A DNA stretch of 64,000 nucleotides, taken from NCBI RefSeq assembly GCF_964204645.1, contig NC_134033.1, positions 7,076,655 through 7,140,654 of the forward strand, in the 5' to 3' direction. Below the pieces are notes generated by a model. It ran no database searches. It was not told the DNA's origin and saw only the letters and a list, made by a program, of their open reading frames with translations. Positions 1,740 through 35,557 of the stretch are shown here, piece by piece. The stretch comes from Tubulanus polymorphus (Eukaryota; Animalia; Nemertea). The translations under genes and the position numbers were made by a program. The first letter of the stretch is position 1, and the number at the start of each line of letters is the position of its first letter.

Positions 1740-2198
1740 AGTAATAGGGATAAAAGGCTTTCAAGCCAAAGGTCGAACGGTCGAGCTCAAAACAAAACAT
1801 TAAAAGTAATTTAAAACTATAATATATTTTCATAACCGTGTGTATTTTATATTATAACTAAATATTTATTCTAAGATATCAATAATTTAAAAAGCATATT
1901 GTATTAAATCAATTGGTCGCTCCACTTCGCTACCGCTCCGCTCCGCGACCAATTGATTTATTTACAATACACAAATTCATGTAATCAAATATATTTTAAT
2001 AATAATTATTATTCTATTATTTAACTGAAATACACACGGTTATGAAAATATATTATAGTTTTAAATTACTTTTAATGTTTTGTTTTTAATGAACTCGACC
2101 ATTCAACCTTTAACCTGAAAGCCTATTATCCCTATTACTCTTAAAGTAATCATATACATGAATAACATTTAAATTGGCAGATTATTCAATATAAAAGT
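1740..2198. repeat. Left TIR of element A, internally palindromic
   Basis: Reverse complement of 18240-18468 plus 35323-35557; 1740-~1847 is also inverted at ~2028-2139; central hairpin 1905-1960. Confidence 0.92.
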
Positions 2199-2347
2199 AT
2201 ATATTTACAACATTATTTCAATATTTATATTTGTATGAGTTAGATTTTTAAACATTAAAAGTGTTAGTAAAGTGTGATTGAAATAATACATAATATAAAT
2301 CATTGAACTTCTAAAATCAATTTTAATAAAAATATTTTAGTATTAAA

Positions 2348-5300
2348 ATGGAAGCAAATAAGTACTACTGTCCAACATGTAATATCAATATAGATAAATC
2401 CCAAAAAGCAAGACACAATAAAACTAAAACACATTTAGAGAATAAATTGAAACTAGAATATAAAGATGATATATTATAAACTAAATTAGATAGTTAAAGA
2501 ATGAAAAAGAAACATACAAATGTGATACATGTAATCAATCATTCAGTGATAAAAGATATTATAATGAACATTTAAAATCTAAAAGTCATATTAGAAATAA
2601 GAATAATGATATTTTAGGTGAAGATTATTTTGATAAAGATAATGATAAGAAACAGAAGACAATTAAAAGCATGAAAAATAAATTAAACAATAAAAGACCA
2701 TACATGGAAGATGTAAGAAAATATATTAATTCATTAGATAATAAAAAAGATATAGAGATAACCGAAGCATTTAAAAGTGATATTGGCCCAGCAGCTATCG
2801 AGTTTAAATTTCATAAAGGAAAAACTTTAGAAGAAAATAAAAAACATTTAGAAAATATGAAAAATATTATAAAAATAATAACTGATGTTGAATATCCTAA
2901 AATTAGTATATCTTCTAAAGTTAAATTCATAAAATCTGAAGATAAACCAATATATAATATAAATTCTCATTCACAACATATTATATCTAAACAACATATA
3001 GATAAAAAAAAGAATATAGAGAAATATTTTGAAGGATCTGGTTTAATATTCGATGAAATAATATTTATGACTTTACATGTTTATAACACAAAATATAATA
3101 AGTTAACTAAATCAAAACGAATAGATGAAAATAATGTATCATATTATAAAGAACCAGATATTGAAGCATCAAGTTATATTAAACTACCATTTAAAACTAA
3201 TGCTGTAATAAATGTACAAAATGAAGATGATAAATGTTTTCTATGGGCTATAATAAGTTGTTTACACCCAGTTGAAGATTATAAACAACATAGTTTTAGA
3301 TTAACTCATTATAAACAATTTGAAAATAATTATAAGATAGATAAGTATCCTGTTATAATTAAAAACATCCCAAAAATAGAAAGAGATAATAATTTAAGAA
3401 TAAATGTATTTGATTTAATCAAATTACCAAATACAAAAGGTAACAACATAAAACATTATACATTAGAACCTTTTTACCTATCAAAAGATTATGATTCAAA
3501 CGATGTTATAGATATACTATATTATGAGAATCATTATATGTGGATTAAACAAATAGATTTATTCTTTAGAACAGAAAGTGATCACCATAATAAAATATAT
3601 CTTTGTAGAAAATGTTTACATAGATTCAGTAATGAAAGTACATTATTAAATCATAAACAATTATGTGAAAATCATGATTATTGTAAATTAGTTTTACCAA
3701 ATGAAAAGGATAAAATATTAGAATTCAAAAAATATGATTACAAAAATAAAGTACCATTTGTAATATATGGAGATTTTGAATCATTAAATAAAGAATTAAC
3801 TGATCAAGAAAGAAAAGAAATATATTATAAAAGAAAGAAATTAAATTCTCATGAAAATGATTTTTCAGATGAACCACCAATTACAAATACTATTAAAAAG
3901 ATTCATCAATCAGCTGCAGCTTTCGGGTTATATATAAAATCTGATTATCCAGAACTAATTAAAAGTGAATATTATCATTATAGAAATGAAAATGTTATCA
4001 ATCATTTGTGTGACTTATTAATTGAATATGAAATAAGATGTAGTAAATTATTGAATACAAATATAGAAATTATAATGACAGAAGAAGATAAAGAAGAATT
4101 TGCGTTTTCAGATAAATGTTATTATTGTGAAAAGATATTTAATTTTAGAGATAAAAAAGTAAGAGACCATGATCATTCGAATGGAAAGTTTAGAGGCGCT
4201 GCACATGAGAATTGTAACTTACAAGCTAAGAAAATTAACTTTGTGCCAGTTATATTTCATAATCTATCAGGATATGATGCGCATTTATTCATCAAACAGT
4301 TATGTCGTAAAATAGAAGAAATTAATAATGAAATAGAAAGATTAAATTCAAATAGATCAAAAGATAAAATACCAACTTATAAATTTAGAATGTTAGCTAA
4401 AACATCTGAGAATTATATATCATTCCAATTTGGTTGCCTAAGATTTATAGATTCATATAGATTTTTAAATAGTTCATTAGATAACTTATCAAAATCATTA
4501 GTTGATGATGAATTGAAAATATTAAAACAACACTATCCAAATAATGATGATTTTCAATTAATGAGATATAAAGGCGCAATTCCATATTCTTTCTATAAAA
4601 ATCATAATGATTTCAATATAACTGAATTATTAAAAGAACAATTCTATGATGAATTAAAAAATGGATATGTTAAAGATGAAGTATATAATAGAACATTGAA
4701 TATTTGGAATCATTTCAAAATAGAAAATCATGGGCAATTAGTAGATATATATTTAAAATCAGATGTATTATTATTAACCGATATATTCGAAAGGTTTAGA
4801 GATGTAAACCTAAAATATTTTAATATTGATCCTTGTCATTGTTATTCTAGTCCAGGTTTAACATGGGATTGTGGATTAAAATTTACAGATATAAAAATGG
4901 ATTTGTTAACAAATATAGATCAATTACTATTATTTGAAAAATCTATAAGAGGAAGAGTTTCAGGTGTATTAGGTGATAGATATTTCAATGTAAATGATAA
5001 CCCTGGATATAAGTTATTATATATAGATGCAAATAATTTATATGGTTGGGCAATGATGGAACCACAACCTTATGGAGTATTTGAAATAAGTGAAGTTTTA
5101 CAGAATGAAAATAATGACAAATTTGATTGGAAGAAATGAATTCTGGATATTGCAGATGATTCAGATACTGGTTACTTTTTTGTTGTAGATTTAGAATATC
5201 CTGAACATATTAAATTAAAATCTAGAAATCTAGCATACTGTCCAGAACATAAAACTGTAACTCATGAAGAATTATCAAATTACCAAAAAAGAATTAAACC

Positions 5301-6375
5301 CGAAAATCATATTCATACGGAAAAGTTAATGGTAACTCAGGAAGACAAATATAATTATGTAGTACATTATAGAATGTTAAAGTTTTATTTGAATCAAGGA
5401 ATGATTCTAAAAAAAGTACATAGATATATTTCATTCAGTCAATCTAAGTGGTTAGAAAAATATATAGATTTTAACACCAAACAGAGAACTGAAGCTAAAA
5501 CTGATTTCGAGAAAGATTTCTTCAAGTTAATGAATAATGCATTCTATGGTAAGACTTGTGAAAATATTAGAAATAGAAATGATATTGAGTTAGTCAGTAA
5601 TGGTAAAAGAATTAGACATTTACAAACATATCCTAAGTTCATTGGTAACAGAATATTTGATGAAAATTTAGCTGCAGTTAAGATGAGAAGAACATCAATG
5701 AAATTTAATAAACCAATCTATGTTGGCGCATCAGTTTTAGAATTATCAAAATTACTAAGGTATGAATTCTATTATAATGTATTACAACCACTTTTTGGAG
5801 AAAAACATATAGAAATATTATATTTTGATACCGACAGTTACATATTAAAGATAAAAACTGATAACATTACTGATGATTTAAAAACATTAAAACATCATTT
5901 TGATTTCAGTAATTATCCTAAAGATCATGAATTGTTTAGCAATGATAATAAAAAAGTTCCCGGTAAACTCAAAGATGAATTAGGCGGTGAAGAAATGATA
6001 GAGTTCATCGGTATTAGATCTAAAATGTATTCATATAAAACTAAAGAACATGAAGCTAAAAAGTTAAAAGGAATAACCAAAAGTGTAGTAGAAAAGAATA
6101 TTCATTTAAAAAAATTCAATTTCAAAGATTACATCAATTGTATATTCAATGAAGAAGTTAGAAAACATAAGATGAGATGTTTAGGATCTGAAGATCACGA
6201 GATGTTTATTGAAGAAATTGAAAAGGTTAGTTTGAATCCATTTGATGATAAAAGATATATTTTAGATGATGGAATTCATACAGTCGCGTATGGTTGCAAT
6301 TTTGATGAATATCTAAAATTTAAAAGAGCAGAAACAAGAGAGAATGAGATTATGAACAGGATTATAACGTGTTAA
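2348..6375 (+). pseudogene. pPolB: Protein-primed family B DNA polymerase of A, with N-terminal C2H2 fingers and an endonuclease VII-like insert; intein-free
   Basis: ExoI YGDFES, ExoII FHNLSGYD, motif A YIDANNLYG, motif B KLMNNAFYGK, motif C YFDTDS, DHDH..FRGAAH..CN; disrupted at ~2480-2520 and by an in-frame TGA at 5137-5139 (ORFs 2671-5139 and 5329-6375 share a frame). Confidence 0.93.
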
Positions 6376-6404
6376 TCAAATTTTAATAAAAATATGTATT
6401 ATAA

Positions 6405-6758
6405 ATGGAGAGTAAACAAGCACACAGTGAGAACAACAAATTATTTCTAGATAGAATAAAAGATACTTCAAATGTCAAATCAGTAGATTATAAGTTTAAG
6501 AAGTTAAAAGAATTAACAATCCATAAGAAATATCTAATTACAAATATTGATACAGTTACTAACAAATATGGAGATAAATTAGTTATACACTTAGAATATG
6601 AAGGATTAAAAGGAAATACATATAAAGTCGGAACATATTTACCAGATAGATTTCATAGATTATCAAGTGAAGATTTAGAAGAATTATGTTCTGGTGATTT
6701 CTATTTCGTATACAAAGGTAAGAATGAAAAAGGGCACCATGAAATAGATTTCGAATAA
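6405..6758 (+). CDS. Small protein, possibly OB-fold ssDNA-binding; homolog of 34635-34961
   Basis: Shares KKL..KYG.K..LPD..LS.E..Y.GKNE.GHH with the B copy; function is inference. Confidence 0.55.
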   Translation: MESKQAHSENNKLFLDRIKDTSNVKSVDYKFKKLKELTIHKKYLITNIDTVTNKYGDKLVIHLEYEGLKGNTYKVGTYLPDRFHRLSSEDLEELCSGDFYFVYKGKNEKGHHEIDFE

Positions 6759-6775
6759 GAAAATATGTAAAATAA

Positions 6776-7501
6776 ATGGTAGAATTAAAAGAATACAGAA
6801 TATTTGTTGATTCTAGAAAACTTCAATTAGATAGAGAATTTAAGAATTGTGTTGATTTAAAATTAGTTAATATAAGTTTATGTAATTCTTTTCATAATAT
6901 ATCGAATAAAAGTCTCGATCATTTAGTTTTTAAAATTCATGTTAGAAATTTGAATAAATGGTTTCATCTTTATCGAAAACAAGGATTATATAATTTAGAA
7001 ACATTAGCGCAAGAAAATAATAGAAGAGCTCGTTTAAAAATGGGCGCATCTGCTAGATTTGAAATTAAATTTATCAAAAGTGATAGTTCGAATAAAATAA
7101 GAATAAAGTTAACTAATGAACAACATAGATTTCTAGTAAGAAAACCTTTAGCTAAACTGTTTGGAATTCTCCCGGATAGAGATTATTCAAGTATCGAAAC
7201 TTATACAAATTTAATGACTTTTACACATTTTTATATTTATTGCAATTTAATCAATCCTACAAAAACATTTGAAGCAACTAAAGATACAATTTGTAATTCT
7301 AGTATATCAAATATTTTACCATTAAAAAATGTCAAACAATTTGAAACTCAAATAAATTATAATTTAACTGAAAGTGATTTTAAACCTTGTATTCCACATT
7401 TCAATAATTTTAAATTAGAAATAAGAAATCATAATGGTTATTTAATTGATTTGAATAACTTTCCTGTGATATATGAATTAGTTATAAGATGTAAAGAGTA
7501 A
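6776..7501 (+). CDS. Minor capsid (penton-like) protein candidate, A
   Basis: Beta-rich; HFYIYCNLI and C-terminal LEIRNHNGYLIDLNNFPVIYELVI resemble Polinton minor capsid proteins; short N-terminal deletion versus B. Confidence 0.65.
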   Translation: MVELKEYRIFVDSRKLQLDREFKNCVDLKLVNISLCNSFHNISNKSLDHLVFKIHVRNLNKWFHLYRKQGLYNLETLAQENNRRARLKMGASARFEIKFIKSDSSNKIRIKLTNEQHRFLVRKPLAKLFGILPDRDYSSIETYTNLMTFTHFYIYCNLINPTKTFEATKDTICNSSISNILPLKNVKQFETQINYNLTESDFKPCIPHFNNFKLEIRNHNGYLIDLNNFPVIYELVIRCKE

Positions 7502-7517
7502 TTTTTTCACTATATAA

Positions 7518-7874
7518 ATGAATATAACTGTTGCGCCGAGTATATGTTTTGGGTTTGATTTTAAACATGAGAAAGAAATGAAATTTAACGTTAATGATGT
7601 AATTACACATATCAAAAATATTGCATTTTCTAATGAAACAACATTTGAGTATGAAACAACAATAGATAAAGAAACTTTAAATGTCGAAAAGATTACTAAT
7701 TTAATTAGAGAATCTTTAAGATTTTATGAATTAGATGAAGATTTTATCATCGATGATATTAAAAAAATGATAATTGAAATATATACAAATGAAACTAGTA
7801 ATGACATAAATGTTGATTTAATCATCACTAAGATAACTAAATATTTTGATGATAGTAATTTTTTTGATAAATAA
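7518..7874 (+). CDS. Conserved hypothetical protein, A
   Basis: Near-identical to 25790-26146. Confidence 0.8.
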   Translation: MNITVAPSICFGFDFKHEKEMKFNVNDVITHIKNIAFSNETTFEYETTIDKETLNVEKITNLIRESLRFYELDEDFIIDDIKKMIIEIYTNETSNDINVDLIITKITKYFDDSNFFDK

Positions 7875-8111
7875 ATGAGTGATAATAAGTGGATAATAAC
7901 TGGATTATATAATGGCGAATTACTATCAGTTGGAACTGTTGGTTATTCAATGGTATTAAAAAAAGTATTTAAAATGGGAAGTGTTAATGTTGATAGATTT
8001 GATATAACTGATATTTTAAAACGTTTATTATTTATTTTAACGTTAGCAGTTACTTTATCTAATTTAACTATTGATTATTTGGAAAAACAAAAATATATTC
8101 CTCCCATATAA
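7875..8111 (+). CDS. Small hydrophobic or membrane protein, A
   Basis: Near-identical to 26147-26368 with a 5-aa insertion. Confidence 0.75.
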   Translation: MSDNKWIITGLYNGELLSVGTVGYSMVLKKVFKMGSVNVDRFDITDILKRLLFILTLAVTLSNLTIDYLEKQKYIPPI

Positions 8112-8135
8112 ATGCGTAATTATTTTACTAAATAA

Positions 8136-8558
8136 ATGGCTTCTGCAGTTATAACTATTATAGGATCAGCAATTGTTAACGCTTTAGCATTTACTGGTGG
8201 CGGTTATTTATTCAAGCATATTGATAAAAATGGTTCATTAACAGAACAAAAAAGACATAACTTAGCATTAGAGAAATATAATAAAGCAGCAGAAGAATAT
8301 AGAGAAAAGAGGCAAAACTATATGGATTATATTAACAAGGAATTATATGATCAGAAGATTTCACATAGAGATTTTCAATCAGTTGATGATGCAATGAGTT
8401 TATATAACGCGGTAACCAATAAAGAAAAATTACATCTATACAAACCTAAATTATCAGATTATTATACCCCAAGTAAAGAACAACAGAAATATGAAATAAT
8501 TTGGATTTTAGGTGGAACAGTTATTGTTATATTTGTTGCTTATAAGTTTACTAATTAG
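8136..8558 (+). CDS. Membrane protein with N- and C-terminal hydrophobic helices, A
   Basis: Near-identical to 26393-26815. Confidence 0.8.
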   Translation: MASAVITIIGSAIVNALAFTGGGYLFKHIDKNGSLTEQKRHNLALEKYNKAAEEYREKRQNYMDYINKELYDQKISHRDFQSVDDAMSLYNAVTNKEKLHLYKPKLSDYYTPSKEQQKYEIIWILGGTVIVIFVAYKFTN

Positions 8559-8580
8559 TAATTTTTTTTTGCTAAATAAA

Positions 8581-9003
8581 TTGATGATAATATTGATATT
8601 ATTCCTCATGATATAAATAAAACTAAATTAAAAACATATTTAGAAAAACAAATATTAGAATTTGAAAGTGACAAAGATAAAAAAGAAAAAATATTTAAAA
8701 AGTAAAATTATATATTATCTTATTATTAGTGGTTCGGTTACAATTAGTTCTGTAATAACATTTCTAGCAATATTCAGTCCATTAACACCTTTAGCTATAT
8801 CAATTGGCGTACTAGGATTAAGTTCAAGTGTTTTAACCGGTATAAGTTCAAAATTGAATATAAAAAAGTAATAAAGAAAAAATTAAAACTAAAATAAAAG
8901 AAATGAATAAATTAAAGAACACACTAGATTATATAATAAGTTTAAATCGTCATATAACAGTTGAAGAACAAGATAAATTATTAAAAGAATTAATAAATTA
9001 TTA
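8581..9003 (+). pseudogene. Two-TM protein, A (start lost, frameshifted)
   Basis: Aligns with intact 26835-27269. Confidence 0.8.
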
Positions 9004-9020
9004 ATTTTTTAATTATATAA

Positions 9021-10355
9021 ATGGCAGATTGTTTTCCAAAAGCTTTCCAATATAATAAATCAATTAAATATGATATTCCAGCAATAGATTTTAATAAAGA
9101 TATTACATATAGAAATGAAGTTTTAAATTCATTAATTGATTTATATATTTATGTTACTGAAAGTAATAATTTTCTTGTAAAGATGGAAAATATATTTCAT
9201 GTGTATACAATTAATTTCAAAAATTTAAATGAGGCAAAACAATGGTTATTAAAATCTAATATGAAGTATTGGCAAAACCAATTAAATTTTGCTGTTTATT
9301 GCGCAACAACAGGATGTGGTATAAGTTGGAATGATCATTTAAACAAACCAAGTTTACCATTGATGTTATCACTTTTTAGATTTCATACTTATTTTCAAAT
9401 AAAATTAATATTAGATGAATTAGAATGTCCTTTACCAGGTTCAAAATATTTTAAAGAATTGAATAATAATATTAATTTTTCTAAGTTTTATAAAATATGT
9501 AATGAATTTAATATTAATTCAAATAAAGATTTTAGAGCATAAATTGGAACAATGGGTGGCTTAGGAATATTGTATACTAAAGAATTTGGAAAAATAATGA
9601 CAAAGTCAGATATAAGAACACTAAATTGGAATGAATTACCAAAATATTATAATAATATAAAACAACAAAACAATAATGGTTGGGTTAATTTCATTTTAGA
9701 AAATAGTGAAGGTTTTACTAAAGCTGGTATACAAAGAATAAAACAATCTATTAGAACTTATTTGATATGTATTTTAGGTGCGCAAGTTGAAACAAGATCC
9801 CCAATAATTGGAAATGATAACACTTCATTCGATGCGCAGAAACAATTCAAAGTATTATTTGAAGATTTAATTCATAATGATAAAAATAGATCGATTCCAG
9901 AAAACATTGTAAGATATCAAAATTATTTAGATAAATCACATATTAGATTAAATTATTGTATAGGCCCTAATCTATTAATTATTTCTAATGATTTAGTATT
10001 AAAGATGGGAAACATAATTGGTTACAATAATCTAATTAAAACTGCAACAATAAATAATTCATTTGGATTAAATGATATAAATAAAAAGATTATTACTGCT
10101 CCAAAATTAATGGAAGGTGAAAAAAATAAAAAACATATTCAATCAACAGAAACTAAAACTAAGAATATTAAATTAAATAATGATTCTAAAATAAAAGATT
10201 ACAATACATCAGAAAATATAAAAACTGATAATATTCAACATGATATAATTAAACTAAATGATGATAATAAATCCCATGAAAATGCTAAATTAGCTTTAAC
10301 TTGTATAGGAATTGTAATCGGAGGAATATTATATTTTAAATTTTTTATTATATAA
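9021..10355 (+). pseudogene. C-terminally anchored putative virion protein, A (nonsense at 9540-9542)
   Basis: Aligns with intact 27286-28701; AAA to TAA change. Confidence 0.85.
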
Positions 10356-11973: not shown

Positions 11974-11993
11974 TTAATTTTTTTGTTAAATAA

Positions 11994-16585: not shown

Positions 16586-16591
16586 AATAAG

Positions 16592-25773: not shown

Positions 25774-25789
25774 TTTTTTCATTATATAA

Positions 25790-26146: not shown

Positions 26147-26368
26147 ATGAGTGATAATAAGTGGATAATAACTGGATTATATAATGGAGCATTACTATCA
26201 GTTGGAACTGTTGGTTATTCAATGGTATTAAAAAAAGTATTCAAAATGGGAAGTGTTAATGTTGATAGATTTGATATCAATGATATTTTAAAGTTAACGT
26301 TAGCAGTTACTTTATCTAATTTAACTATTGATTATTTGGAAAAACAAAAATATATTCCTCCCATATAA
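26147..26368 (+). CDS. Small hydrophobic or membrane protein, B
   Basis: ORF with a homolog in A; two hydrophobic stretches. Confidence 0.78.
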   Translation: MSDNKWIITGLYNGALLSVGTVGYSMVLKKVFKMGSVNVDRFDINDILKLTLAVTLSNLTIDYLEKQKYIPPI

Positions 26369-26392
26369 ATGCATAATTTTTTTGCTAAATAA

Positions 26393-26815: not shown

Positions 26816-26834
26816 TAATTTTTATTCTAAATAA

Positions 26835-27269: not shown

Positions 27270-27285
27270 TTTTTTAATTATATAA

Positions 27286-28701
27286 ATGGCAGATAGTTTT
27301 CCAAAAGCTTTCCAATACAATAAATCAATTAAATATAATATTCCAGCAATAGATTTTAATAAAGATATTACATATAGAAATGAAGTTTTAGATTCATTAA
27401 CTAATTTAGAAATTTATGTTACTGAAACTAATAATTTTAATGCAAAGATGGAAAATATATTTCATGTATATTTAATTAATTTTAAAAAATTGAAAGATGA
27501 AAAACAATGGTTATTAAAATCTAATATGAAGTATTGGCAGAATCAATTAAATTTTGCTGTTTATTGTGCAACAACAGGATGTGGAATTAGTTGGAATGAT
27601 CATTTGAATAATTCTAAATATAAACTAATTCAAAGTTTATTTAGATTTCATACATACTTTCAAATCAGAATAATATTAAATGAATTAGAGTGCGCTTTAC
27701 CAGGATCTAGATATTTTAAAGAATTAGATAATAATATTAATTTATCTAAGTTTTATAAAATTTGTAATGAATTTAATATAGATATAAATAATTCTGATTT
27801 TAGAACAAAAATTGGAACAATAAGATCACTTCCTTGCCCTAGAAAGATTGCAGAATATTGTGCACTTCCCATACCATCTAATAGTTTTTATAATATCTAT
27901 AATAAAAAATTAGGTTATGGTAAAATAGAAACAAACGATTTAGAAACATTAAATTTCAATAAATTACCGAAATTTTATGATCATTTAAAACAAGAAAACA
28001 ATAATGGTTGGGTTTATTTTATTTTAGAAAATAGTGAAGGTTTTACTAAATCAGGTATAGAAAGAATAAATCAATCTATTAGAACTTATTTGATTTGTAT
28101 TCTAGGATCACAAGTTGAAACAAGATCCCCAATAATTGGAAATTTAAATACATCATTTGATACACAAAAACAATTTAAAGTTTTATTTGAAGATTCAATT
28201 CATAATGATAAAAATAGATCGATTCCAGAAAACATTATAAGATATCAAAATTATTTAGATAAATCTCATGTAAGACTTAATTATTGTATAGGCCCTAATC
28301 TATTAATTATTTCTAATGATTTAGTATTAAAGATGGGAAATATAATTGGTTATAATAATCTAATTAAAACTGCAACAATAAATAATTCATTTGGATTGAA
28401 TGATATAAATAAAAAGATTATTACTGCTCCAAAATTAATGGAAGGTGAAAAAAATAAAAAACACATTCAATCAACTGAAACTAAAACTAAGAATATTAAA
28501 TTAAATAATGATTCTAAAATAAAAGATTATAATACATCAGAAAATAATAGAACTGATAATGGTGCCATATGGCACCCACACGGTGATATTCAACATGATG
28601 TAATTAAACTAAATGATGATAATAAATTCCATGAAAATACTAAATTAGCTATAACTTGTATAGGAATTGTTATAGGAGGAATATTATATTTTAAATTTTA
28701 A
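27286..28701 (+). CDS. C-terminally anchored putative virion protein, B
   Basis: 471-aa ORF, QNQLNFAVYCATTGCGIS motif, C-terminal TM; homolog in A. Confidence 0.8.
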   Translation: MADSFPKAFQYNKSIKYNIPAIDFNKDITYRNEVLDSLTNLEIYVTETNNFNAKMENIFHVYLINFKKLKDEKQWLLKSNMKYWQNQLNFAVYCATTGCGISWNDHLNNSKYKLIQSLFRFHTYFQIRIILNELECALPGSRYFKELDNNINLSKFYKICNEFNIDINNSDFRTKIGTIRSLPCPRKIAEYCALPIPSNSFYNIYNKKLGYGKIETNDLETLNFNKLPKFYDHLKQENNNGWVYFILENSEGFTKSGIERINQSIRTYLICILGSQVETRSPIIGNLNTSFDTQKQFKVLFEDSIHNDKNRSIPENIIRYQNYLDKSHVRLNYCIGPNLLIISNDLVLKMGNIIGYNNLIKTATINNSFGLNDINKKIITAPKLMEGEKNKKHIQSTETKTKNIKLNNDSKIKDYNTSENNRTDNGAIWHPHGDIQHDVIKLNDDNKFHENTKLAITCIGIVIGGILYFKF

Positions 28702-28717
28702 TTTTTTTATTATATAA

Positions 28718-30253
28718 ATGGATGTAGAAGGTGTAGAAGATATTGGAATGGATCCTTTTGATGAACCTGGTATAACTGATGAACAACCACCTGATTTTGA
28801 TGAAACAAGTTTTAATGATGGTAATGAACCAGAATATAACAATAATTTAAATATGCCTGATTATATTAAAAATGCTGAATCACAATTAAATCCTGAAAAT
28901 TTAGACCCAGATTTAGTAAAACAAGATTTAGATAATTTAAACAAAATACCTAAATTAGAAGATTTAATTGAAAAATCTAATTTTAACATAAATGATGAAG
29001 ACGTTGGACTTTTAGCAGATCAATTAAAATTTTTAGATAATGGTAAATGTTATTATCGTTTGAAAGGTGATTATTATATTGATATCACTTATAAAAATAA
29101 TAAAAATAAAATATTATCAGAATCAACTTTAGAAAAATTAAAACCAGATAGAATTAAAATAATAAGTAATAGTAATGAAATAACTGATGTTACACAAAAA
29201 GAAATAGATGATAATATAGATGTATTTAAACAAAGAATTAATGAATTATTTGAAATAATCAAAAAGAAATCAGAAACAGAAATGGAAGAGAATAGAGATA
29301 AATTAAGATCTTCAACACCCGAAACATCGAGAAGAGACACTCAACAAATTGATAATGATTTAAGTCAATCACAATTAGAAAAACGTTTAGATAACTTACT
29401 GAATAAAACTTCCAAAACTAGTAAACTTAAATCAAATAAAGTTCTAATTGAAAAACTTTTACCGAATGGATTACTTGATGCAACAGATCAAGAATTAGAA
29501 GATTTAGATATATTTTCTGATAAAGCAATTAGAGAAATTATTAGTATAAGACTTGCATCTGATAAAATTGCGCATAATAAAAGTATAAGAGATCAAAAAA
29601 TTACGTATTTGGAAAAAGAATTAACTGATAAAAATAAAGAAATAGAACAACTAAAGTCTGATTTAGATCATCAAGTAATTGATGAAATAGAATATAGGCA
29701 AAAAGAATTACGTTTAGAAAAAGAAATTAGTAATTTAAAAGATAATTTAGAAGTACAGAAAGAAGAAATTAAATTATTGTTAAAATCATATGATTATAAT
29801 ATTAATAGATTAAAAGTTATTTTTAAAGATTTGTTGATTAAACCAAATTCTGACATATCACTAAAAGATAGAATAAGATTATTATTTAAATTAGAAGGAA
29901 TAACAATTCTTTCAATTCTAACATCTGTAACTATGTTATTTACAACAATTGGTTTAGCTATATCAAATGCTTTGAAATCTACTCCTACTCCCAATAAACC
30001 AGATAAACCTCCAGGAAATAATTCTATACAAGATAAAGTTAAGGATGGTTTAAAGAAATTAGCAAAATATTTATGGGAACTATCTAAAAAATCTGCTGCA
30101 GCTTTACCAGGAGTTATTGCTTCAATTGTTGGTTTTATATTGAAATCTGCAGGAAACATTATTAACTTTGCTGCTGAACATATTATTTTATTTTTAATTA
30201 CAGTTGTAAGTGCTATTATTTTTGGGTTAGTGAATATGATTAAAAATAAATAA
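28718..30253 (+). CDS. Acidic/coiled-coil protein with C-terminal TM helices, B
   Basis: 511-aa ORF with heptad-rich middle and 2-3 hydrophobic helices. Confidence 0.8.
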   Translation: MDVEGVEDIGMDPFDEPGITDEQPPDFDETSFNDGNEPEYNNNLNMPDYIKNAESQLNPENLDPDLVKQDLDNLNKIPKLEDLIEKSNFNINDEDVGLLADQLKFLDNGKCYYRLKGDYYIDITYKNNKNKILSESTLEKLKPDRIKIISNSNEITDVTQKEIDDNIDVFKQRINELFEIIKKKSETEMEENRDKLRSSTPETSRRDTQQIDNDLSQSQLEKRLDNLLNKTSKTSKLKSNKVLIEKLLPNGLLDATDQELEDLDIFSDKAIREIISIRLASDKIAHNKSIRDQKITYLEKELTDKNKEIEQLKSDLDHQVIDEIEYRQKELRLEKEISNLKDNLEVQKEEIKLLLKSYDYNINRLKVIFKDLLIKPNSDISLKDRIRLLFKLEGITILSILTSVTMLFTTIGLAISNALKSTPTPNKPDKPPGNNSIQDKVKDGLKKLAKYLWELSKKSAAALPGVIASIVGFILKSAGNIINFAAEHIILFLITVVSAIIFGLVNMIKNK

Positions 30254-30273
30254 TTAATTTTTTTGTTTAATAA

Positions 30274-31521
30274 ATGAGTGGGAGTTATATAAGTCCTTCT
30301 AAGATTTCTAGAATATCTAATGCTATTAAAGCAGAAAGATCACATCATATAATTACTCATAACCCTTCAAATATTAATCCTGATGAAACTTTATATGTTA
30401 GAATCCCTCAATTAACACAAAATACTTTTTATGTTCCAAACAGTATTTATTTATCAGCTGATATAAAAGTAATCGGTAATAATAATAATTATGTCGTTGA
30501 TAATGTTGGAAGATATTTGATTAAAAAGTTAACAATAAAGATTGGTCCAGAAACAGTTTTCTCATTAGATGATTATAATTTATTTATGCATTATAAAGAT
30601 TTATGGTTAACTAAAGAAAATAGAAATAATATGATATTTCAAGGCATCCAATCAGAAAACCAAAATAAATTAAGATCAGAAGCTAATAACGCAATATTAA
30701 CAAATGATGTAGATAAATTGATAAAAAGTATATATGGAAGCAAATATAAAATTCCATTAGACTTTGAATTGATAAATAATAATGCACCTTTATATAAATA
30801 CGCAATTCAAGAAGATATTATATTTGAGATAACATTTGCTCCTGTAAATGAAATTGTATTATCTAGCGTTGTTAAAGATATGAGTTATAAATTATCGAAT
30901 ATATGTTTAGAATATGATACAGTAACTGATGAAAATATTGCTAGCACAATTCAAACTCAATACAATCAAGGATTTTCATTATTATATGATTATATTGATA
31001 AATTTAAAACTGTAACTATTAATGCAAATGATGAAATAATAAATGAGAATATTAACTTCCCAAGAAGATCTATTAAAGGTATATTAATATTTTTTACCAT
31101 TGGAACGTATACTAATGGTGCAATAAATGTTGATAATTATTATAATCCTGAAATAACAAAAGTAGAAATAACTATCGAAGGAATAGCAAATAAAATATTT
31201 TGTCAAGGAATGAGAATGATAGATCAATGGGTAGAAATTAAAAAACATTTTATGAATGAAAAAGTAAAATCATTTGAAAATTGTAACATTAATCAAATTG
31301 ATTATTATACCGGTAATAAATATGCATTATGGTTAGATTTTAGAACAACTGAAGATAATTCATTACATGGTTCTGGAAAAAAACTACAGAACACTAAAGA
31401 TGGAATACAATTATTTATGAAAAAGAAAAAGGGAATCAAAAATTTTAAAATGCATATTTATATTATATCTGATGCGCAATTAAATATTATAAATTCACAA
31501 TTAGATAGTATTCAATATTAG
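30274..31521 (+). CDS. Major capsid protein candidate (double jelly-roll expected), B
   Basis: 415 aa, beta-rich, highly conserved between A and B, size and position as expected; fold not verified. Confidence 0.75.
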   Translation: MSGSYISPSKISRISNAIKAERSHHIITHNPSNINPDETLYVRIPQLTQNTFYVPNSIYLSADIKVIGNNNNYVVDNVGRYLIKKLTIKIGPETVFSLDDYNLFMHYKDLWLTKENRNNMIFQGIQSENQNKLRSEANNAILTNDVDKLIKSIYGSKYKIPLDFELINNNAPLYKYAIQEDIIFEITFAPVNEIVLSSVVKDMSYKLSNICLEYDTVTDENIASTIQTQYNQGFSLLYDYIDKFKTVTINANDEIINENINFPRRSIKGILIFFTIGTYTNGAINVDNYYNPEITKVEITIEGIANKIFCQGMRMIDQWVEIKKHFMNEKVKSFENCNINQIDYYTGNKYALWLDFRTTEDNSLHGSGKKLQNTKDGIQLFMKKKKGIKNFKMHIYIISDAQLNIINSQLDSIQY

Positions 31522-31551
31522 AAATATAAAGTTAAAATTAAGGATATATAA

Positions 31552-32679
31552 ATGGGAGGTAAAAAAACCCCTAATACTAAAGAACAATATTTAAGAAATT
31601 TATATTACAACCCTGAGAGTTCGGTTGCTTATTCTTCTACTAAAAATATATGGCGTAAAGTAAAACAAGATAAATTAGATAAGATAATCCCACAAAATTT
31701 AGTTAAATATAAAGATATAAATGAATTTATGTTAGAACAACCAACGTATACAACACATAAAAAAATTGTTAGAAAATATAAAACTCGTAAAACTATGGTA
31801 AGTTATGTAGATCAACAGTGGCAAGGAGATTTAATTGATATGAAAAATCTTAAAAAAGATAATAATGATTATTGGTGGATATTGAATATAATTGATATTT
31901 TTAGTCGTTATGTATGGAGTTTCCCACTTTATAGAAAAGATGCTGCACAAACATCACATGTTTTAAGAAAATTTCTTTCAGGTGGTAAACTAAAACCAGA
32001 AAAAATTCAATTTGATGATGGAAAAGAGTTTGATAATTCATTTGTTCATGAACTCTTAGATAATCATAATATTAAATATTTTTCAACAAAATCGGATAAA
32101 AAAGCAGCAGTTGTTGAACGATTTAATAGAACATTAAGAACAAGAATGTGGAAATATTTTACAGCAAATAATACTTTTAAATGGATTGATGTTTTACCAA
32201 AATTGATAGAAGGATATAATAATTCTTATCATTCTTCTATTGGAATGAAACCTATTGATGCTAGAAAATCTGAAAATGCTGAAATTGTTTGGAATAATTT
32301 ATATGGAGCATTTCTTATAGATGATTTTGGTGAACCTAAATTTAAAGTTGGTCAAAATGTTAGAATTTCTAAGTATAAAAAGATATTTGATAAAGGATAC
32401 GATCGAAATTTTACTAGAGAAATATATAAAATAAAAAAGGTAATAACAACAAAACCATATGTCTATAAATTAGAAGATTTAGATGGTGAAGAAGTTGATG
32501 GATATTTTTACGAAGAAGAATTAAGTTTAACTACTGAAAATCTAGAACAAGAATATAAAATTGAAAAAGTATTAAAAACAAAAACTGTTAAAAGAAAAAA
32601 ATATTCTTTAGTAAAATGGGTTGGATGGCCAGATAAATTCAATGAATGGATATTATCAAGTAAAATTAAAAATATATAA
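31552..32679 (+). CDS. rve integrase with C-terminal chromodomain, B
   Basis: WQGDLID, IQFDDGKEF, VVERFNRT; YKIEKVLK...LVKWVGWPDKFNEWI. Confidence 0.95.
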   Translation: MGGKKTPNTKEQYLRNLYYNPESSVAYSSTKNIWRKVKQDKLDKIIPQNLVKYKDINEFMLEQPTYTTHKKIVRKYKTRKTMVSYVDQQWQGDLIDMKNLKKDNNDYWWILNIIDIFSRYVWSFPLYRKDAAQTSHVLRKFLSGGKLKPEKIQFDDGKEFDNSFVHELLDNHNIKYFSTKSDKKAAVVERFNRTLRTRMWKYFTANNTFKWIDVLPKLIEGYNNSYHSSIGMKPIDARKSENAEIVWNNLYGAFLIDDFGEPKFKVGQNVRISKYKKIFDKGYDRNFTREIYKIKKVITTKPYVYKLEDLDGEEVDGYFYEEELSLTTENLEQEYKIEKVLKTKTVKRKKYSLVKWVGWPDKFNEWILSSKIKNI

Positions 32680-33288
32680 ATGAATAAGGAATTATTCATA
32701 TTTGAGCCTCATAATATGTTAATTTCTGGTGTAACAAATTGTGGAAAAACTTATTTTATATTACATTTATTATAAACTGTTTATGAAAACTATTTTGATA
32801 ATATAGTATTATTTTGTCCAACATATGAATTTAATCAAACTTATGATAAAAATATTACTAGGAATAATAAATTTATTATATTAGATCCTAAAACAGTAAA
32901 AGAAAATTTAGATAATTGTATAAAAATAGCAATTGATATTTATAAAGGATCAAATACATTATTTATCATAGATGATTGTGCTAATCTACATGATTCAAAA
33001 GTTAGAGAAAGTGAGTTATGTTATTTGGCTTTCTCTGGGAGACATTTTGGGATAACAACTTGGGTTTTAAATCAGAAATATAATTCAATTGTGAAAGATT
33101 TTAGAGAAAACATTAGATTTCTAGTTTTATTCTACAATAAAGATAGAAAATCGATGAAAAATGCACTTGAGGAAAATGATATTATTCCACATGATTTACA
33201 TAATGAATATATGGATAAGTTGAAAAATATTAAAAGATCAAAATTACTATTTAGATTACAACACCCATTTAAATATGAATTTATTTAA
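32680..33288 (+). pseudogene. A32/FtsK-HerA-type packaging ATPase, B (nonsense at 32773-32775)
   Basis: GVTNCGKT Walker A, FIIDD Walker B, SGRH. Confidence 0.9.
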
Positions 33289-33289
33289 A

Positions 33290-33562
33290 TTCAACTGGCT
33301 TGTTAATCTAGTTGAATTCTAGTTATTGGTAGTTGAATTCTAGTTATTAGTAGTTGTAACAAAAATCAAATAGATTTAACAATATTTTAACTAGCTTGTT
33401 AATCTATTTTAATTCTAGTTACATTCTAGTTGAATTCTAGTTGTGAGTAGTTGAAACAAAAATCAACTAGATTTAACAAGAAATAAACAAAAACACTAAT
33501 ATTTCAACTAGCTTGTTAATCTAGTTGAATTCTAGTTACATTCTAGTTAAATTCTAGTTGCA
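33290..33562. repeat. Array of CTAGTT(GAATT) motifs in about three higher-order units
   Basis: AACT(A/G)GCTTGTTAATCTA three times; TAGTT more than ten times. Confidence 0.8.
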
Positions 33563-33593
33563 ACATCACACAATTAATTTTTTTGTTATATAA

Positions 33594-34184
33594 ATGGTAG
33601 GTGAAAAGAAAAGAAAATCTAAAAATGGTGATGTTCCAATTGAAAAAACTTTAGATGATTTAGGAATAACAGAAACAAAATTAACTCCAGATGATGGTGT
33701 TTTAAATAATGTTACAACAAATAATAATTATGAATATTATCTTTATTGCAAACATCAATTAGAAATATTAATAGCATCTGGAAAATGTAAAAATTTTGTC
33801 AGTAAAAATTTAACTTATAATGAATTAGACACAATGAAATCAGATGAAATTATTAGATTATTTAAGATTTATGAAGCCGCGAGAACAGCTAGAATTAATG
33901 ACGCGATATCAGAAAATGTAGTAAAAGGTTATAGTAAATTATGTAATTATATACTACCAATTGAAGATGAAAATAGATTATATTCCGATTTAAAAAATGA
34001 TTATTTAGTTATGACTGAATTAAATAAATGGATTGGATATTTATCATTTCAATTAGGTGGATTTATGACATTATTATCAACTGGAGTTATAACATTTTCA
34101 AATATTGAAAGTAAAAATATTTCTATAATAAATGAGCGAGGTGAAAGAAGTGAAGAAAAAATCGAGATCTCAGAAACAAATTGA
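33594..34184 (+). CDS. Conserved protein with a C-terminal hydrophobic segment, B
   Basis: 196-aa ORF; homolog in A. Confidence 0.8.
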   Translation: MVGEKKRKSKNGDVPIEKTLDDLGITETKLTPDDGVLNNVTTNNNYEYYLYCKHQLEILIASGKCKNFVSKNLTYNELDTMKSDEIIRLFKIYEAARTARINDAISENVVKGYSKLCNYILPIEDENRLYSDLKNDYLVMTELNKWIGYLSFQLGGFMTLLSTGVITFSNIESKNISIINERGERSEEKIEISETN

Positions 34185-34485
34185 ATGGTCTCGGCAATTA
34201 GGAATTAAATCACAAGAATATAAAAAAGCTGTAAAAGAAAAAATAAGTAATAAAAATGTTAACAAAAATGGTGAAAATATTATTATTTCTACTCCTTCTG
34301 ATAGTAGAATATTTGATAAATATTTATATTTTACAGTTGGATTTGTAATTGTATTCATTTTGATTGGGTGTAATTGGTATAAGAAATCAAATAAAATTCA
34401 TGATATTAGTAATTCTGAAACAACTGCTATTAAAAATGAAAATACTTCTGAAATTCCAAAATTAACAATAAAAAAAATGGATTAA
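34132..34485 (+). CDS. Basic single-TM protein, B
   Basis: Homolog of 16217-16585. Confidence 0.75.
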   Translation: MSEVKEVKKKSRSQKQIEWSRQLGIKSQEYKKAVKEKISNKNVNKNGENIIISTPSDSRIFDKYLYFTVGFVIVFILIGCNWYKKSNKIHDISNSETTAIKNENTSEIPKLTIKKMD

Positions 34486-34529
34486 TATTTTAGAAAAAAG
34501 CAAAAAAAATAATTTTTTTTAATTAATTG

Positions 34530-34604
34530 AATATCTCACTACTTTTGTCTATCTATGAGGAGCAATTAAATTGTCCAGATAAGTCATTTCGGATTCTAGA
34601 TATT
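34530..34604 (-). other. Conserved putative structured element, copy in B
   Basis: Homolog of 15288-15366. Confidence 0.55.
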
Positions 34605-34634
34605 CATTATTTTTATTAATTTATTTTTTTAAAT

Positions 34635-34961
34635 TTAATCAACAATTTCTAAATCATGATGGCCATCTTCATTTTTTCCATGATAGATTATTTTAAATCC
34701 TTCTAAATCTTTTGATTCCTCTGTACTCAATGAAACCCATTTATCAGGTAAAAATACTTTAAATTCTCGCGATGTACTAACATTGCAGTAGCTTAAATTA
34801 GCTGATACTTTCTCTCCATATTTAGTTTTTATCTTTTCTAATTTCAATATTTTATGTTCAATTTCTTTTGTAACATCAACTAACTTTTTTATTTCAAATT
34901 GTTTTTTTGCTGGTTTTATTCTGTTATTTATTGTTGCTAAGAATGCTTTTCTATCTCCCAT
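34635..34961 (-). CDS. Small protein, possibly OB-fold ssDNA-binding, B
   Basis: Homolog of 6405-6758. Confidence 0.55.
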   Translation of the reverse strand: MGDRKAFLATINNRIKPAKKQFEIKKLVDVTKEIEHKILKLEKIKTKYGEKVSANLSYCNVSTSREFKVFLPDKWVSLSTEESKDLEGFKIIYHGKNEDGHHDLEIVD

Positions 34962-34994
34962 TTATTAGGAAAAAAAATTACTTGTGGTGATGAG
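34959..34994 (-). promoter_or_regulatory. 36-bp leader, copy 3 (SSB-like gene)
   Basis: Exact copy of 18521-18556. Confidence 0.8.
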
Positions 34995-35027
34995 TGATTA
35001 CTTCCCCTATATATAACAAACACGTTA

Positions 35028-35231
35028 TTACGCGCACTCACTGTTTATATGTGACACAATTTTACTACGTAATATTTCTAAAATTTCAATTGTATCTTTT
35101 ATTTCTAGTGAATCAATATAATTTCTAACATTTCCCATGTAAGGTTTATCAATGTATTTTTTACAATATTGACAATAATATTGATTTTTATTGACATCAC
35201 TTTTTTCTGTTTGGAACTCACTGTCTCCCAT
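35028..35231 (-). CDS. Short, internally deleted copy of the pPolB N-terminus in the right end of B
   Basis: pPolB aa ~1-28 joined to aa ~126-155. Confidence 0.6.
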   Translation of the reverse strand: MGDSEFQTEKSDVNKNQYYCQYCKKYIDKPYMGNVRNYIDSLEIKDTIEILEILRSKIVSHINSECA

Positions 35232-35316
35232 TTATTAGGGGAAAAAATTACTTGTGGTGATGAGCGGTGTCTCGTCCTCTCGTCCTCTGATCTGAAAACG
35301 CCATCTTCTAATTACT
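35147..35316. repeat. Right TIR of element B
   Basis: Reverse complement of 18469-~18640. Confidence 0.9.
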
Positions 35317-35322
35317 TTTGTG

Positions 35323-35557
35323 TATTGTAAATAAATCAATTGGTCGCGGAGCGGAGCGGTAGCGAAGTGGAGCGACCAATTGATTTAATACAATATGCTT
35401 TTTAAATTATTGATATCTTAGAATAAATATTTAGTTATAATCTAAAATACACACGGTTATGAAAATATATTATAGTTTTAAATTACTTTTAATGTTTTGT
35501 TTTTTAATGAGCTCGACCGTTCGACCTTTGGCTTGAAAGCCTATTATTCCTATTACT
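35323..35557. repeat. Outer part of the right TIR of element A
   Basis: Reverse complement of 1740-~1969, including the hairpin. Confidence 0.92.

Follow-up and report, generated by a model that had tools for sequence, protein, structure and literature searches.

Introduction

The locus described here raises the question of whether a Polinton carried in an animal chromosome lives at the expense of a helper virus. To our knowledge, animal Polintons have no described life cycle. Whether Polintons need a helper virus is stated as an open question in a section of PMC5499653, and the hosts named in the part of the ICTV account dealing with poxvirus range are vertebrates and four insect orders (PMC12447285). 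We analyzed a 64,000-nucleotide stretch of a Tubulanus polymorphus chromosome (the window), for which the original prediction had proposed integrated Polinton-like viruses (PLVs) built to run on a poxvirus-like transcription machinery. A pox-type promoter on every gene would make the helper dependence of Polintons cheaply testable, and it predicts a pox-like virus in hosts for which none has been described. VLTF3 is already known from some Polintons; what appears, from the literature searched, to be new is a start signal of the poxvirus late type throughout a lineage.

Results

The host chromosome holds two nested Maverick/Polintons, element B (18469-35316) lying within element A (1740-35557), which corrects an earlier side-by-side placement. 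B is inserted in the right terminal repeat of A, and each element has an exact 6-bp target duplication, the length found for Polintons: CGAAGG at 1734-1739 and, identically, at 35558-35563 for A, and TTTGTG at 18463-18468, repeated at 35317-35322, for B. The left terminal inverted repeat of A (~462 bp, 1740-2201, plus strand) repeats the terminus internally, in inverted orientation, near 2028-2140. The right repeat, which is split in two, agrees with it at 227/230 positions in one half and at 218/226 in the other; the inner half (18237-18468, minus strand) ends in the left target duplication of B, and the outer half follows the right one (together 35317-35557, minus strand). The left terminal inverted repeat of B (18469-18643, plus strand) starts with AGTAATT, contains the promoter block of the DNA polymerase gene and agrees with 35142-35316 at 159 of 175 positions; the right repeat (35057-35316, minus strand) includes a short remnant of the 5' end of that gene.

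B is 16,848 bp long, and A measures ~16,960 bp without B. The GC content of the elements is 23.8% and 23.6%, compared with 36.1% and 40.3% in the flanks, and 94% of B is coding. Apart from the intein-split polymerase, the genes of B all align to a relative as a single stretch, indicating that introns are lacking, and a hydrophobic segment was found in 6 of 19 proteins, one of them the capsid (a false positive). High AT content, tight packing, absence of introns and transmembrane proteins, all cited in the original prediction, are real, but they are general to this family. Both copies are damaged: B has one in-frame stop in its polymerase gene and one in its ATPase gene, and in A most core genes are interrupted by stops or frameshifts. 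Probably neither copy can complete a cycle unaided. The family is multi-copy in the genome, and 329 reads leave for other sequence at 24975.

The first gene of B encodes a family B DNA polymerase of the protein-primed type (pPolB; 18554-23620, plus strand), whose first ORF is ended by the in-frame stop at 21721. The split pPolB ORFs of the window match only Endonuclease_7 in Pfam; the B gene is 36-44% identical to the pPolB of a related locus (L018), itself a match to PF03175. There follow an A2/VLTF3-like late transcription factor gene in an open frame (23617-24918, minus strand), with extra N-terminal zinc fingers and preceded by a duplicate of the terminal promoter block, and a putative penton (minor capsid) gene (24976-25773, plus strand), which pairs with a conserved gene of distant relatives (hhalign probability 92.8) and has no match in PDB or Pfam. 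Six conserved genes without assigned function (118, 73, 140, 144 [SLATT-like], 471 and 511 aa; 25790-30253, plus strand), four of them with hydrophobic segments, precede the open frame of the double jelly-roll major capsid protein (30274-31521, plus strand), whose predicted model (pLDDT 88) has its best fold matches in the PBCV-1 and SGIV capsids (E 1e-16), the mavirus capsid ranking below both. The remaining genes are an open rve integrase with a chromodomain (31552-32679, plus strand, rve E 1.2e-9), an A32-type packaging ATPase (32680-33294, plus strand), stopped after 31 codons and 81% identical to the ATPase of locus L003, and, at 33594-34961, g196 and g117 (plus strand) with a 108-aa ORF (minus strand) in front of which the terminal promoter block is found once more.

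In A, the pPolB gene (2348-6375, plus strand) is broken, has an Endonuclease_7 match, aligns to the L018 pPolB with one stop and keeps its YFDTDS motif uninterrupted. Its structural block (6405-13235, plus strand) comprises a small ORF, a probable penton, three small ORFs, a SLATT-like gene, g471, g511 and the major capsid gene, several of them broken, and is 85-87% identical in DNA to the B counterpart. Two accessory genes (13271-15308, plus strand), a 243-aa zinc-finger ORF and a 227-aa HNH/EndoVII gene, both start with TAAATG, and mostly broken paralogues of g196, g117, the rve integrase (E 1.2e-8) and the A32 ATPase (Pox_A32, E 3.3e-8) occupy 15621-18208 (plus strand). These elements have the Maverick/Polinton hallmarks, namely pPolB, rve, an A32 ATPase, a double jelly-roll capsid, a length of 15-20 kb, terminal inverted repeats and a 6-bp duplication; with pPolB and rve together, they count as true Maverick/Polintons, and the PLV label first given to them does not apply in its narrow sense. 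No protease was found by Pfam among the 32 element ORFs, as had been noted, but relatives without the start motif share this lack, and the published entomopoxvirus-associated elements have a protease.

TAAATG stands at 27 of 30 curated starts (15/16 in B, 12/14 in A) against 45 of 794 other plus-strand ATGs in 1740-35557 (Fisher p 5e-28), a count that excludes two A genes with no intact start (SLATT-like and ATPase) and in which the 30 starts are not independent, since those of A are mostly paralogues of those of B. The pPolB start of A is among those lacking the motif. A T occupies position -12 at 25 of 27 TAAATG starts in the window versus 13 of 45 internal TAAATG sites, and at 46/52 starts versus 29/87 internal sites in the clade of relatives considered below. 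The TAAATG starts and upstream T-runs first noticed on nearly all genes are thus borne out. As outlined for vaccinia in parts of PMC11980589 and PMC5294985, TAAAT of the late promoter overlaps the ATG and a conserved T lies ~10 nt upstream; both features, TAAAT over the start codon and a T-rich core ~10 nt upstream, are present here, in the order T-run, short spacer, TAAATG, and this single promoter class stands on all genes, polymerase and integrase included. The promoter block itself (44 nt) occurs in four copies in B and precedes pPolB, VLTF3 and a captured ORF.

A chordopox-trained matrix distinguishes starts from internal sites in the window and the clade (p 0.004 and 6e-7), and 0 of 500 position shuffles reached the score. 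The T profile matches the chordopox control weakly (r 0.17 in the window, 0.45 in the clade); in that control, which is pseudo-replicated and mixes intermediate with late genes, T stands at -12 in 87/198 starts and 215/589 internal sites. A further point against the pox reading is that T5 runs are depleted in the coding strands (0.60, 0.50), in contrast to one pox late region of the two compared (0.95, 0.88). This depletion, with the frequent placement of the T-run directly after the upstream stop codon, suggests that the T-run may be a terminator.

Among relatives, the capsid gene starts with TAAATG in 14 of 15 members of one clade, whose GC content spans 20-44%, and in none of the 41 on the other side of the deepest split, elements of 26-28% GC included; the motif is therefore lineage-specific and not an artefact of AT content. 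Counted by start, the clade has TAAATG at 49/59 and far relatives at 0/35 and 0/166; T occupies -3 in 49/59 clade starts, whereas a purine does so in 31/35 and 122/166 far-relative starts. The AT-rich far relatives, with TATA or TAAA adjoining the ATG at 14 of 35 starts, are not a clean nuclear control, and the comparison covers one family, with the protease-bearing Group 1 Polintons outside it. Within the clade, the motif is retained at orthologous genes while capsids are 51-77% identical. Among the large viruses compared, TAAATG starts amount to 170/526 in chordopoxviruses, 3/10 in entomopoxviruses, and 10/167 and 11/89 in giant-virus-type loci, the last set bearing inteins. The sister lineages L041 and L042 carry another start motif, TATAG.

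These data bear on whether the elements could be autonomous nuclear Polintons under host Pol II, TAAATG being a private compact signal (a re-initiation stop-start junction on polycistronic RNA, or TATAAA/AATAAA over the next start), the T-run an end signal and VLTF3 cargo or the element's own regulator. A stop codon does lie directly on the next ATG in 3 of 15 neighbouring pairs, A occupies -4 at 27/27 starts and -5 at 59%, giving AATAAA or TATAAA words, T-runs frequently start from the stop codon upstream, and a multi-copy family with clean target duplications on integration fits this account. However, 10 of the 15 gaps measure 16-30 nt, and the full motif is found on pPolB, VLTF3 and the 108-aa ORF, which have no abutting upstream gene. 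Were a TATA box to overlap the ATG, transcription would start downstream of that ATG, following the established Pol II geometry covered in part of PMC7163114; the T at -3 in place of the purine of relatives also argues against host transcription, as does, weakly, the lack of avoidance of internal AATAAA (ratio 1.09; 1.05 in far relatives). We judge this account unlikely.

The VLTF-3/A2-like gene named in the original prediction is confirmed in B only. Its PF04947 match (E 2e-6, 28.1 bits, cut-off 25) is confined to the 167-aa C-terminal part, Pfam giving no VLTF3 match for the whole ORF or for a 234-aa part. The protein has a zinc ribbon and a VLTF3 domain with CxxC conserved, and its first match in the ESM Atlas is a VLTF3 cluster (0.95). 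Among 1.84 billion proteins there were five matches: similar orthologues on long branches make up three of them, and an entomopox-type VLTF-3 is the best of the others. The B protein scores 60.4 bits against a pox profile, 32.7 against chordopox, 30.4 against entomopox and 16.8 against giant-virus-type profiles, with shuffles at ≤7.6. Conversely, with the Polinton VLTF3 profile, all 11 chordopox A2 proteins reach 42-55 bits and outscore each giant-virus-type row; two giant-virus-type proteins (38.8 and 32.5 bits) equal the entomopox scores. The four Polinton rows cluster weakly (89/58) in the tree, on long branches and outside both pox subfamilies, in a sampling that left out asfar-, ego- and iridovirus VLTF3s by name. 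Judged by these comparisons, the B homologue leans to poxviruses and branches outside the known ones. Profile searches found no VLTF3 in A or in 80 of 80 related loci, mostly partial; L041, which lacks the motif, gave a weak match (E 6e-4). VLTF3 in a subgroup of Polintons, those of corals, is already on record in a section of PMC11131425. Among the outcomes that the original prediction had counted against itself were the lack of an A2/VLTF3 match and the same start motif in canonical nuclear Polintons of similar AT content; a match exists, and the motif is absent from AT-rich relatives of the same family, Group 1 aside.

The predicted Pol-c intein is likewise present (22100-23149, plus strand), an open frame of 350 aa with a LAGLIDADG homing endonuclease, inserted at polymerase motif C (YFD/S...N/TD) with the Ser/Cys start, Asn end and Thr +1 of inteins; it matches LAGLIDADG_3 (E 6e-7) and TIGR01445 (above cut-off) and is absent from the A pPolB paralogue. 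Its identity to giant-virus PolB inteins is 41-42%, 17 of 37 matches fall in giant-virus bins, and all 20 relatives examined, of the 37 found, sit at GD/S. The HNH/EndoVII gene (14625-15308, A only; PHROG E 9e-18) has its best IMG/VR relative, at 38%, on a contig of 719,641 bp, with 2 loci found. Both genes point to giant viruses and not to poxviruses; the large-DNA-virus-type HNH gene of the original prediction is confirmed. Together with the deoxynucleoside kinase carried by two loci of the clade, the intein and the HNH gene show gene traffic with large DNA viruses.

Such affinities suit a helper that is a non-pox nucleocytovirus (asfar-like, egovirus-like, an iridovirus or an unknown giant virus) with a TAAAT initiator by chance. 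The placement of VLTF3 outside known poxviruses is compatible with it, T-run avoidance fits poly(T) terminators like those treated for ASFV in part of PMC7163114, TAAAT occurs in some ranavirus polymerase promoters mentioned in PMC5294985, and the loci bearing inteins have a somewhat higher share of TAAATG starts. But TAAATG on the ATG is the pox signature, as the chordopox and first giant-virus-type counts indicate, the ASFV late initiator is given as TATA in the same part of PMC7163114, and every chordopox A2 outscores the giant-virus-type rows; we consider such a helper quite improbable. Highly improbable is a relic motif, left from a helper-dependent virus in copies that are now only transposons or dead, with inactive promoters: both copies are broken and VLTF3 is missing at this place in A and many copies (the reads diverging at 24975), but orthologous genes have retained the motif and newly acquired genes are furnished with a copy, which implies selection until recently, and similarity between the terminal repeats of A is 96-99%.

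Discussion

A late-type signal on almost every gene, combined with a poxvirus-leaning transcription factor, makes parasitism of a pox-like virus likely. We think it probable, though well short of assured, that these are helper-dependent, virophage-like Polintons read by the pox-type late machinery of a co-infecting, pox-like helper. For expression they would depend on the RNA polymerase of this large DNA virus, much as the virophage mavirus depends on its giant virus. Promoter layout, lineage restriction, the T at -3 and the lean of VLTF3 all support the pox-machinery interpretation originally put forward; the intein and HNH gene, which are giant-virus-like, and the argument from the missing protease do not.

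In the proposed cycle, infection by a helper, which we would place outside the two known poxvirus subfamilies, would free or copy the element, and the helper's late machinery would read its genes. Transcription would start inside TAAAT, slip and add a poly(A) leader, which might replace the unfavourable T at -3, and the A2 homologue of B could recruit the late machinery or compete for it. The element would be replicated by its own pPolB, packaged by its own ATPase and capsid, and re-integrated by rve. Nuclear silence, replication in a viral factory and an antiviral effect, which the original prediction also supposed, stay hypothetical in this scheme. In the Cafeteria experiments presented in part of PMC10945749, the endogenous virophage that a giant virus activates can be foretold from a promoter match. 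The multi-copy family may also spread without any helper. If the helper-dependent reading is true, the way of life of virophages, and with it perhaps their role in defence, would reach animal chromosomes through a family that is widespread there. More doubtful is an extension in which the animal clade consists of inherited provirophages of a deep-branching, undiscovered poxvirus-like lineage, silent in many copies and woken by helper late machinery, which their own A2 would seize or poison as a heritable antiviral defence, with L041/L042 wired to other large viruses.

By gene content alone, the elements resemble Group 2 Maverick/Polintons (Polintoviricetes; adintoviruses), with ~17 kb, the same core genes and no cysteine protease. 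Part of 10.64898/2026.06.19.733378 describes Group 2 as lacking that protease and having relatives with SF1-helicase replicases, and relatives of our elements include such replicases. Group 1 was rejected, the adenovirus-type cysteine protease, present in 74% of Polintons overall (PMC4028283), giving no Pfam match here. Beyond Maverick/Polintons in general, A and B add the pox-late-type signal on nearly every gene, and B adds the pox-leaning A2 and the pPolB homing intein; we found no description of these features in Polintons in the literature searched.

Mavirus and the EMALEs of Cafeteria share rve integration, pPolB and one late promoter type on their genes, theirs being helper-type; EMALE types have distinct motifs, and CroV wakes only the matching type (PMC10945749, same part). 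A and B differ in a capsid fold nearer PBCV-1 and iridovirus, in lacking a protease, in having TAAATG, not TCTA, and in a host that is likely an animal; a mavirus-class virophage was rejected on the 41st rank of the mavirus capsid in the fold comparison and the missing protease. Entomopoxvirus-associated PLVs are also small capsid-encoding elements proposed as poxvirus parasites, one relative sitting in a beetle chromosome (Barth et al. 2024, PMC11296320), a text that mentions neither promoters nor VLTF. By description only, they have ~12 kb, a cysteine protease, no rve and ungrouped capsids, whereas A and B have ~17 kb, rve and no protease, and identity with them was rejected on those grounds (PMC11296320).

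With vaccinia the elements share TAAAT over the start codon, the T ~10 nt upstream and, in A2, a zinc ribbon with a VLTF3 domain; genes for RNA polymerase, A1, G8 and capping were not found in the elements. Compared with vaccinia, the motif of A and B is far more uniform and stands on all genes, and the A2 homologue of B is longer by ~200 N-terminal residues, which include zinc fingers.

Results

The low-GC interval at 1740–35557, predicted to hold integrated Polinton-like viruses, is a sharp island (23.6–23.8% GC vs 36–40% in the flanks) containing two paralogous gene sets whose DNA is 67–87% alike. The features first noticed are borne out, except that the two elements prove to be nested: element A is bounded by copies of CGAAGG, from 1740 to 35557, while element B (18469–35316), flanked by copies of TTTGTG, cuts the right terminal repeat of A into 18237–18468 and 35323–35557. 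Reading the repeats as a tandem or as an inversion was dropped, because the second target duplication accounts for them. Both elements encode pPolB, an rve integrase, an A32 ATPase and a capsid protein, for which the structural model (pLDDT 88, 37 sequences) matches the double jelly-roll capsids of PBCV-1 and iridovirus; because all of these are present, A and B are Maverick/Polintons. Coding sequence makes up 94% of B, with two in-frame stops (pPolB and ATPase), and most core genes of A are broken. Reads of sequencing run X7 (1,934 Mb) cover all 30 bins of 17001–34500 at about 80–1030-fold; from this depth, taken without a single-copy baseline and with B's right junction outside the covered part, we infer many copies per genome if the genome exceeds about 100 Mb.

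The terminal repeat of A (1740–2140) holds a second, inverted copy of its own end, and each end could fold back. Short AT-rich, non-coding tandem repeats occupy the two largest intergenic gaps (33290–33560 and 14147–14444), and an Rfam search gave 0 matches. The host flanks include a transposon-like reading frame, seemingly a single one interrupted by A (1362–1733 and 35564–36027; no Pfam match), a LINE-type RT fragment (41030–41530), a Ty3/Gypsy-type retrotransposon (44256–49675), a MULE transposase fragment (60016–61558), adjoined by an OTU-like cysteine protease ORF that lies outside the elements (57964–58575, E = 2.2e-5), and tandem repeats of about 385, 42 and 121 bp (37264–38624, 53699–53918 and 55558–55920, respectively).

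The start motif TAAATG is found at 27/30 curated starts, compared with 45/794 other plus-strand ATGs. The full profile comprises AA at −18/−17, a T-run from −16 to −10 that peaks at −12, a spacer, A at −4, and then TAAATG. T occurs at −12 in 25/27 of these starts vs 13/45 internal TAAATG sites, bearing out the claim that nearly all genes start with TAAATG below an upstream T-run. Stop-start coupling accounts for 3/15 gaps between genes, and three genes that have no abutting neighbor bear the motif inside a 44-nt block that duplicates part of the terminal repeat. Because this promoter block occurs, near-identical, four times in B (18521, 24951, 34994 and 35264), accessory genes appear to have been captured with a duplicate of the terminal promoter attached. 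T5 runs are rarer than expected in coding strands (0.60 in B, 0.50 in the capsid-tree clade that includes the window elements, 0.62 in far AT-rich relatives); the T-run may therefore serve as an end signal as well. T5NT depletion as a sign of pox early terminators was dropped, because T5 depletion is seen in far relatives too.

The motif follows lineage. The window capsid has 929 relatives; 80 of 181 confirmed metagenome loci with a capsid relative were kept, and the capsid tree (n = 70) leaves out 20 partial loci with no capsid ORF of enough length. In the core clade (SH-aLRT 98), TAAATG stands at 14/15 capsid starts with DNA, at 20–44% GC, and across the deepest split (support 100) at 0/41, including three loci of 26–28% GC (L018, L020 and L061). 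AT content was dropped as the cause of the motif, on a contrast drawn among capsid relatives of the same family. Homology-supported starts show TAAATG in 49/59 clade cases, 12/31 in an intermediate group, and 0/35 and 0/166 in AT-richer and GC-richer far relatives, zeros that are flattered by the post hoc placement by hand of partial loci L052, L055, L056, L059, L072 and L080 as intermediate. Without hand sorting, the counts are 5/25 (GC up to 33%), 8/48 and 7/354 in non-clade loci vs 52/66 in the clade. At −3, 49/59 clade starts have T, and 31/35 and 122/166 far starts have a purine.

Other start contexts occur among the relatives. In AT-rich far relatives (L016–L020, L057, L058, L061), TATA or TAAA abuts the ATG in 14/35 starts, which could be a Kozak context or a pox-intermediate/ASFV-like initiator. 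A sister lineage of 49% GC (L041, at 1111–8921, and L042) has no TAAATG; most of its starts follow a T-run, with TATAG or TATA about 10 nt on, an element resembling the ASFV late initiator. This lineage, which includes a weak VLTF3 match (L041:6543–7049), may be tied to another helper. The host is probably an animal, judging by the retro- and DNA transposons of the flanks, one bivalve-named capsid relative with 39% identity, and a passage of 10.64898/2026.06.19.733378 that places the Maverick/Polinton class nearly always in animals. A capsid 54% identical and inside the motif clade (P0046) is filed under several Bartonella assemblies; it is probably host DNA within them, and the clade would then have a wider range of hosts. 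Capsid relatives were found in 0/37 IMG/VR stretches and 0/104 prokaryote genomes.

The starts resemble the vaccinia late promoter, sharing TAAAT on the ATG and an upstream T core. In vaccinia, TAAAT overlaps the start codon and ten bases upstream a T is conserved (in a passage of PMC11980589), the T-containing core lies 5–7 bp from TAAAT (part of PMC5294985), and a slipped poly(A) leader is added at TAAAT in postreplicative mRNAs (as excerpted from PMC7163114). Agreement with our pox control is only moderate; that control comprises 198 distinct TAAATG starts, drawn from 32 chordopox stretches, in which the same few orthologues recur many times and gene classes are mixed. A chordopox-trained matrix tells Polinton starts apart from internal sites (p = 0.004 for the window, 6e-7 for the clade), a score reached by 0/500 shuffles. 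The T-profile correlation with the control is r = 0.17 (window) and 0.45 (clade), and in the control itself T at −12 is hardly commoner at starts (87/198) than at internal sites (215/589). TAAATG starts number 170/526 in chordopox and 3/10 in entomopox viruses, and 10/167 and 11/89 in giant-virus-type loci; among the large viruses compared, TAAATG at starts is pox-typical.

The predicted VLTF-3/A2-like gene is present in B (23617–24918, minus strand): in its 433-aa ORF the C-terminal 167 residues alone pass the Pfam cut-off, and an ESM Atlas search likewise supports the identity. Its profile scores are 60.4 (16 pox), 32.7 (11 chordopox), 30.4 (5 entomopox) and 16.8 (26 giant-virus-type rows, 21 of them chosen by a motif and one a stray ORF), and shuffled controls score at most 7.6. 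In reverse, against a Polinton VLTF3 profile, scores are 42–55 for chordopox proteins, 31–46 for entomopox ones and at most 38.8 for those of giant-virus type. In the tree, the four Polinton rows group together weakly (89/58), on long branches outside chordopox and entomopox. From these scores and this placement, the gene leans to poxviruses without deriving from a known subfamily. These profiles found no VLTF3 in A or in 80 related loci, most of them partial, and a word-index search with part of the gene gave 0/439 candidates. Among 1.84 billion proteins there were 5 matches. Three are similar proteins, one is a chance match through its zinc ribbon, and the fifth, P0177, shares 60–63% identity with betaentomopoxvirus VLTF-3. 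Similar proteins of two VLTF3 clusters lie on contigs of length 16,883 and 12,994, equal in size to clade-capsid contigs; this equality alone suggests that the orthologues and clade capsids belong to the same elements. The single-sequence fold of the VLTF3 part (pLDDT 45.7) is too low to use, and PDB sequence searches with VLTF3, the capsid and the penton candidate gave no match.

The intein and the HNH gene point to large DNA viruses more broadly. A homing intein with an open frame (22100–23149, plus strand) lies in pPolB motif C, as predicted; its nearest IMG/VR relatives (41–42%) are polymerase inteins, 17/37 in giant-virus bins, with 20/20 of those examined at the same site and VLTF3 in 4/9 searchable records. 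Because X7 coverage here is roughly 165–220-fold, the intein is present in many copies. Homing requires donor and recipient DNA in one cell, so the intein shows contact with large DNA viruses, though not with poxviruses, and the HNH gene likewise points to large DNA viruses. A deoxynucleoside kinase gene occurs in two motif-bearing relatives (L003:10343–10981 and L007:2898–3377; Pfam E = 1.7e-31 and 8.3e-31), and in none of the far-relative ORFs scanned. Scanning IMG/VR with pPolB gave a single weak match, and an Atlas search with the conserved gene g471 nothing scoring above 0.81.

No protease was found in the 32 ORFs of the elements, as first noticed, nor in 37 ORFs of relatives, which include most of three near-complete motif-less elements. 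Because motif-less relatives also have none, its absence is a family trait and was dropped as a sign of helper dependence, as were TM proteins and tight packing.

Discussion

We lean toward the view that these elements depend on a pox-like helper virus. The helper would provide RNA polymerase, late factors and capping, and the element would provide polymerase, capsid, packaging and integrase, with its own A2 in some copies. We infer every step beyond the sequence features; the weakest would be the first meeting of a nuclear copy with the cytoplasmic polymerase. We hold expression by host Pol II only to be unlikely; genes with no abutting neighbor carry the motif, and clade starts have T at −3 where far relatives have a purine. 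The original prediction of virophage-like elements run on pox-like machinery is partly supported: the start motif and the poxvirus lean of VLTF3 favor it, the intein and HNH gene do not, and an antiviral effect would be speculative. Another large virus as helper would suit the intein and HNH gene but leave the pox-typical start unexplained, and we think it quite unlikely. That the motif is a relic would fit the damage in both elements and is highly improbable. Dependence on a pox-like helper remains our preferred reading.

Small DNA viruses that depend on a helper are known, as is their integration; so are PLVs associated with poxviruses and the presence of VLTF3 in Polintons, the last reported for a Polinton subgroup in PMC11131425 (section 8). 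In the literature within reach, mostly outside subscription journals, we found no Maverick/Polinton clade in which every gene has a pox-late promoter, and among the matches listed no title or abstract describes an open homing intein within a Polinton polymerase. The word "promoter" is absent from PMC11296320 (text and its one supplement) and, supplements aside, from the available passages of PMC11131425, PMC8502044, 10.1101/2024.03.23.586382, 10.64898/2026.10.13.758929 and PMC10120064. How Polintons live in animals, so far an open question, becomes directly testable.

Entomopoxvirus-associated elements possess a protease (PMC11296320, section 5), in contrast to the window elements. The helper dependence proposed here is modelled on the pattern of mavirus, in which, according to a passage of PMC10945749, the endogenous type that is woken can be predicted from its promoter match.
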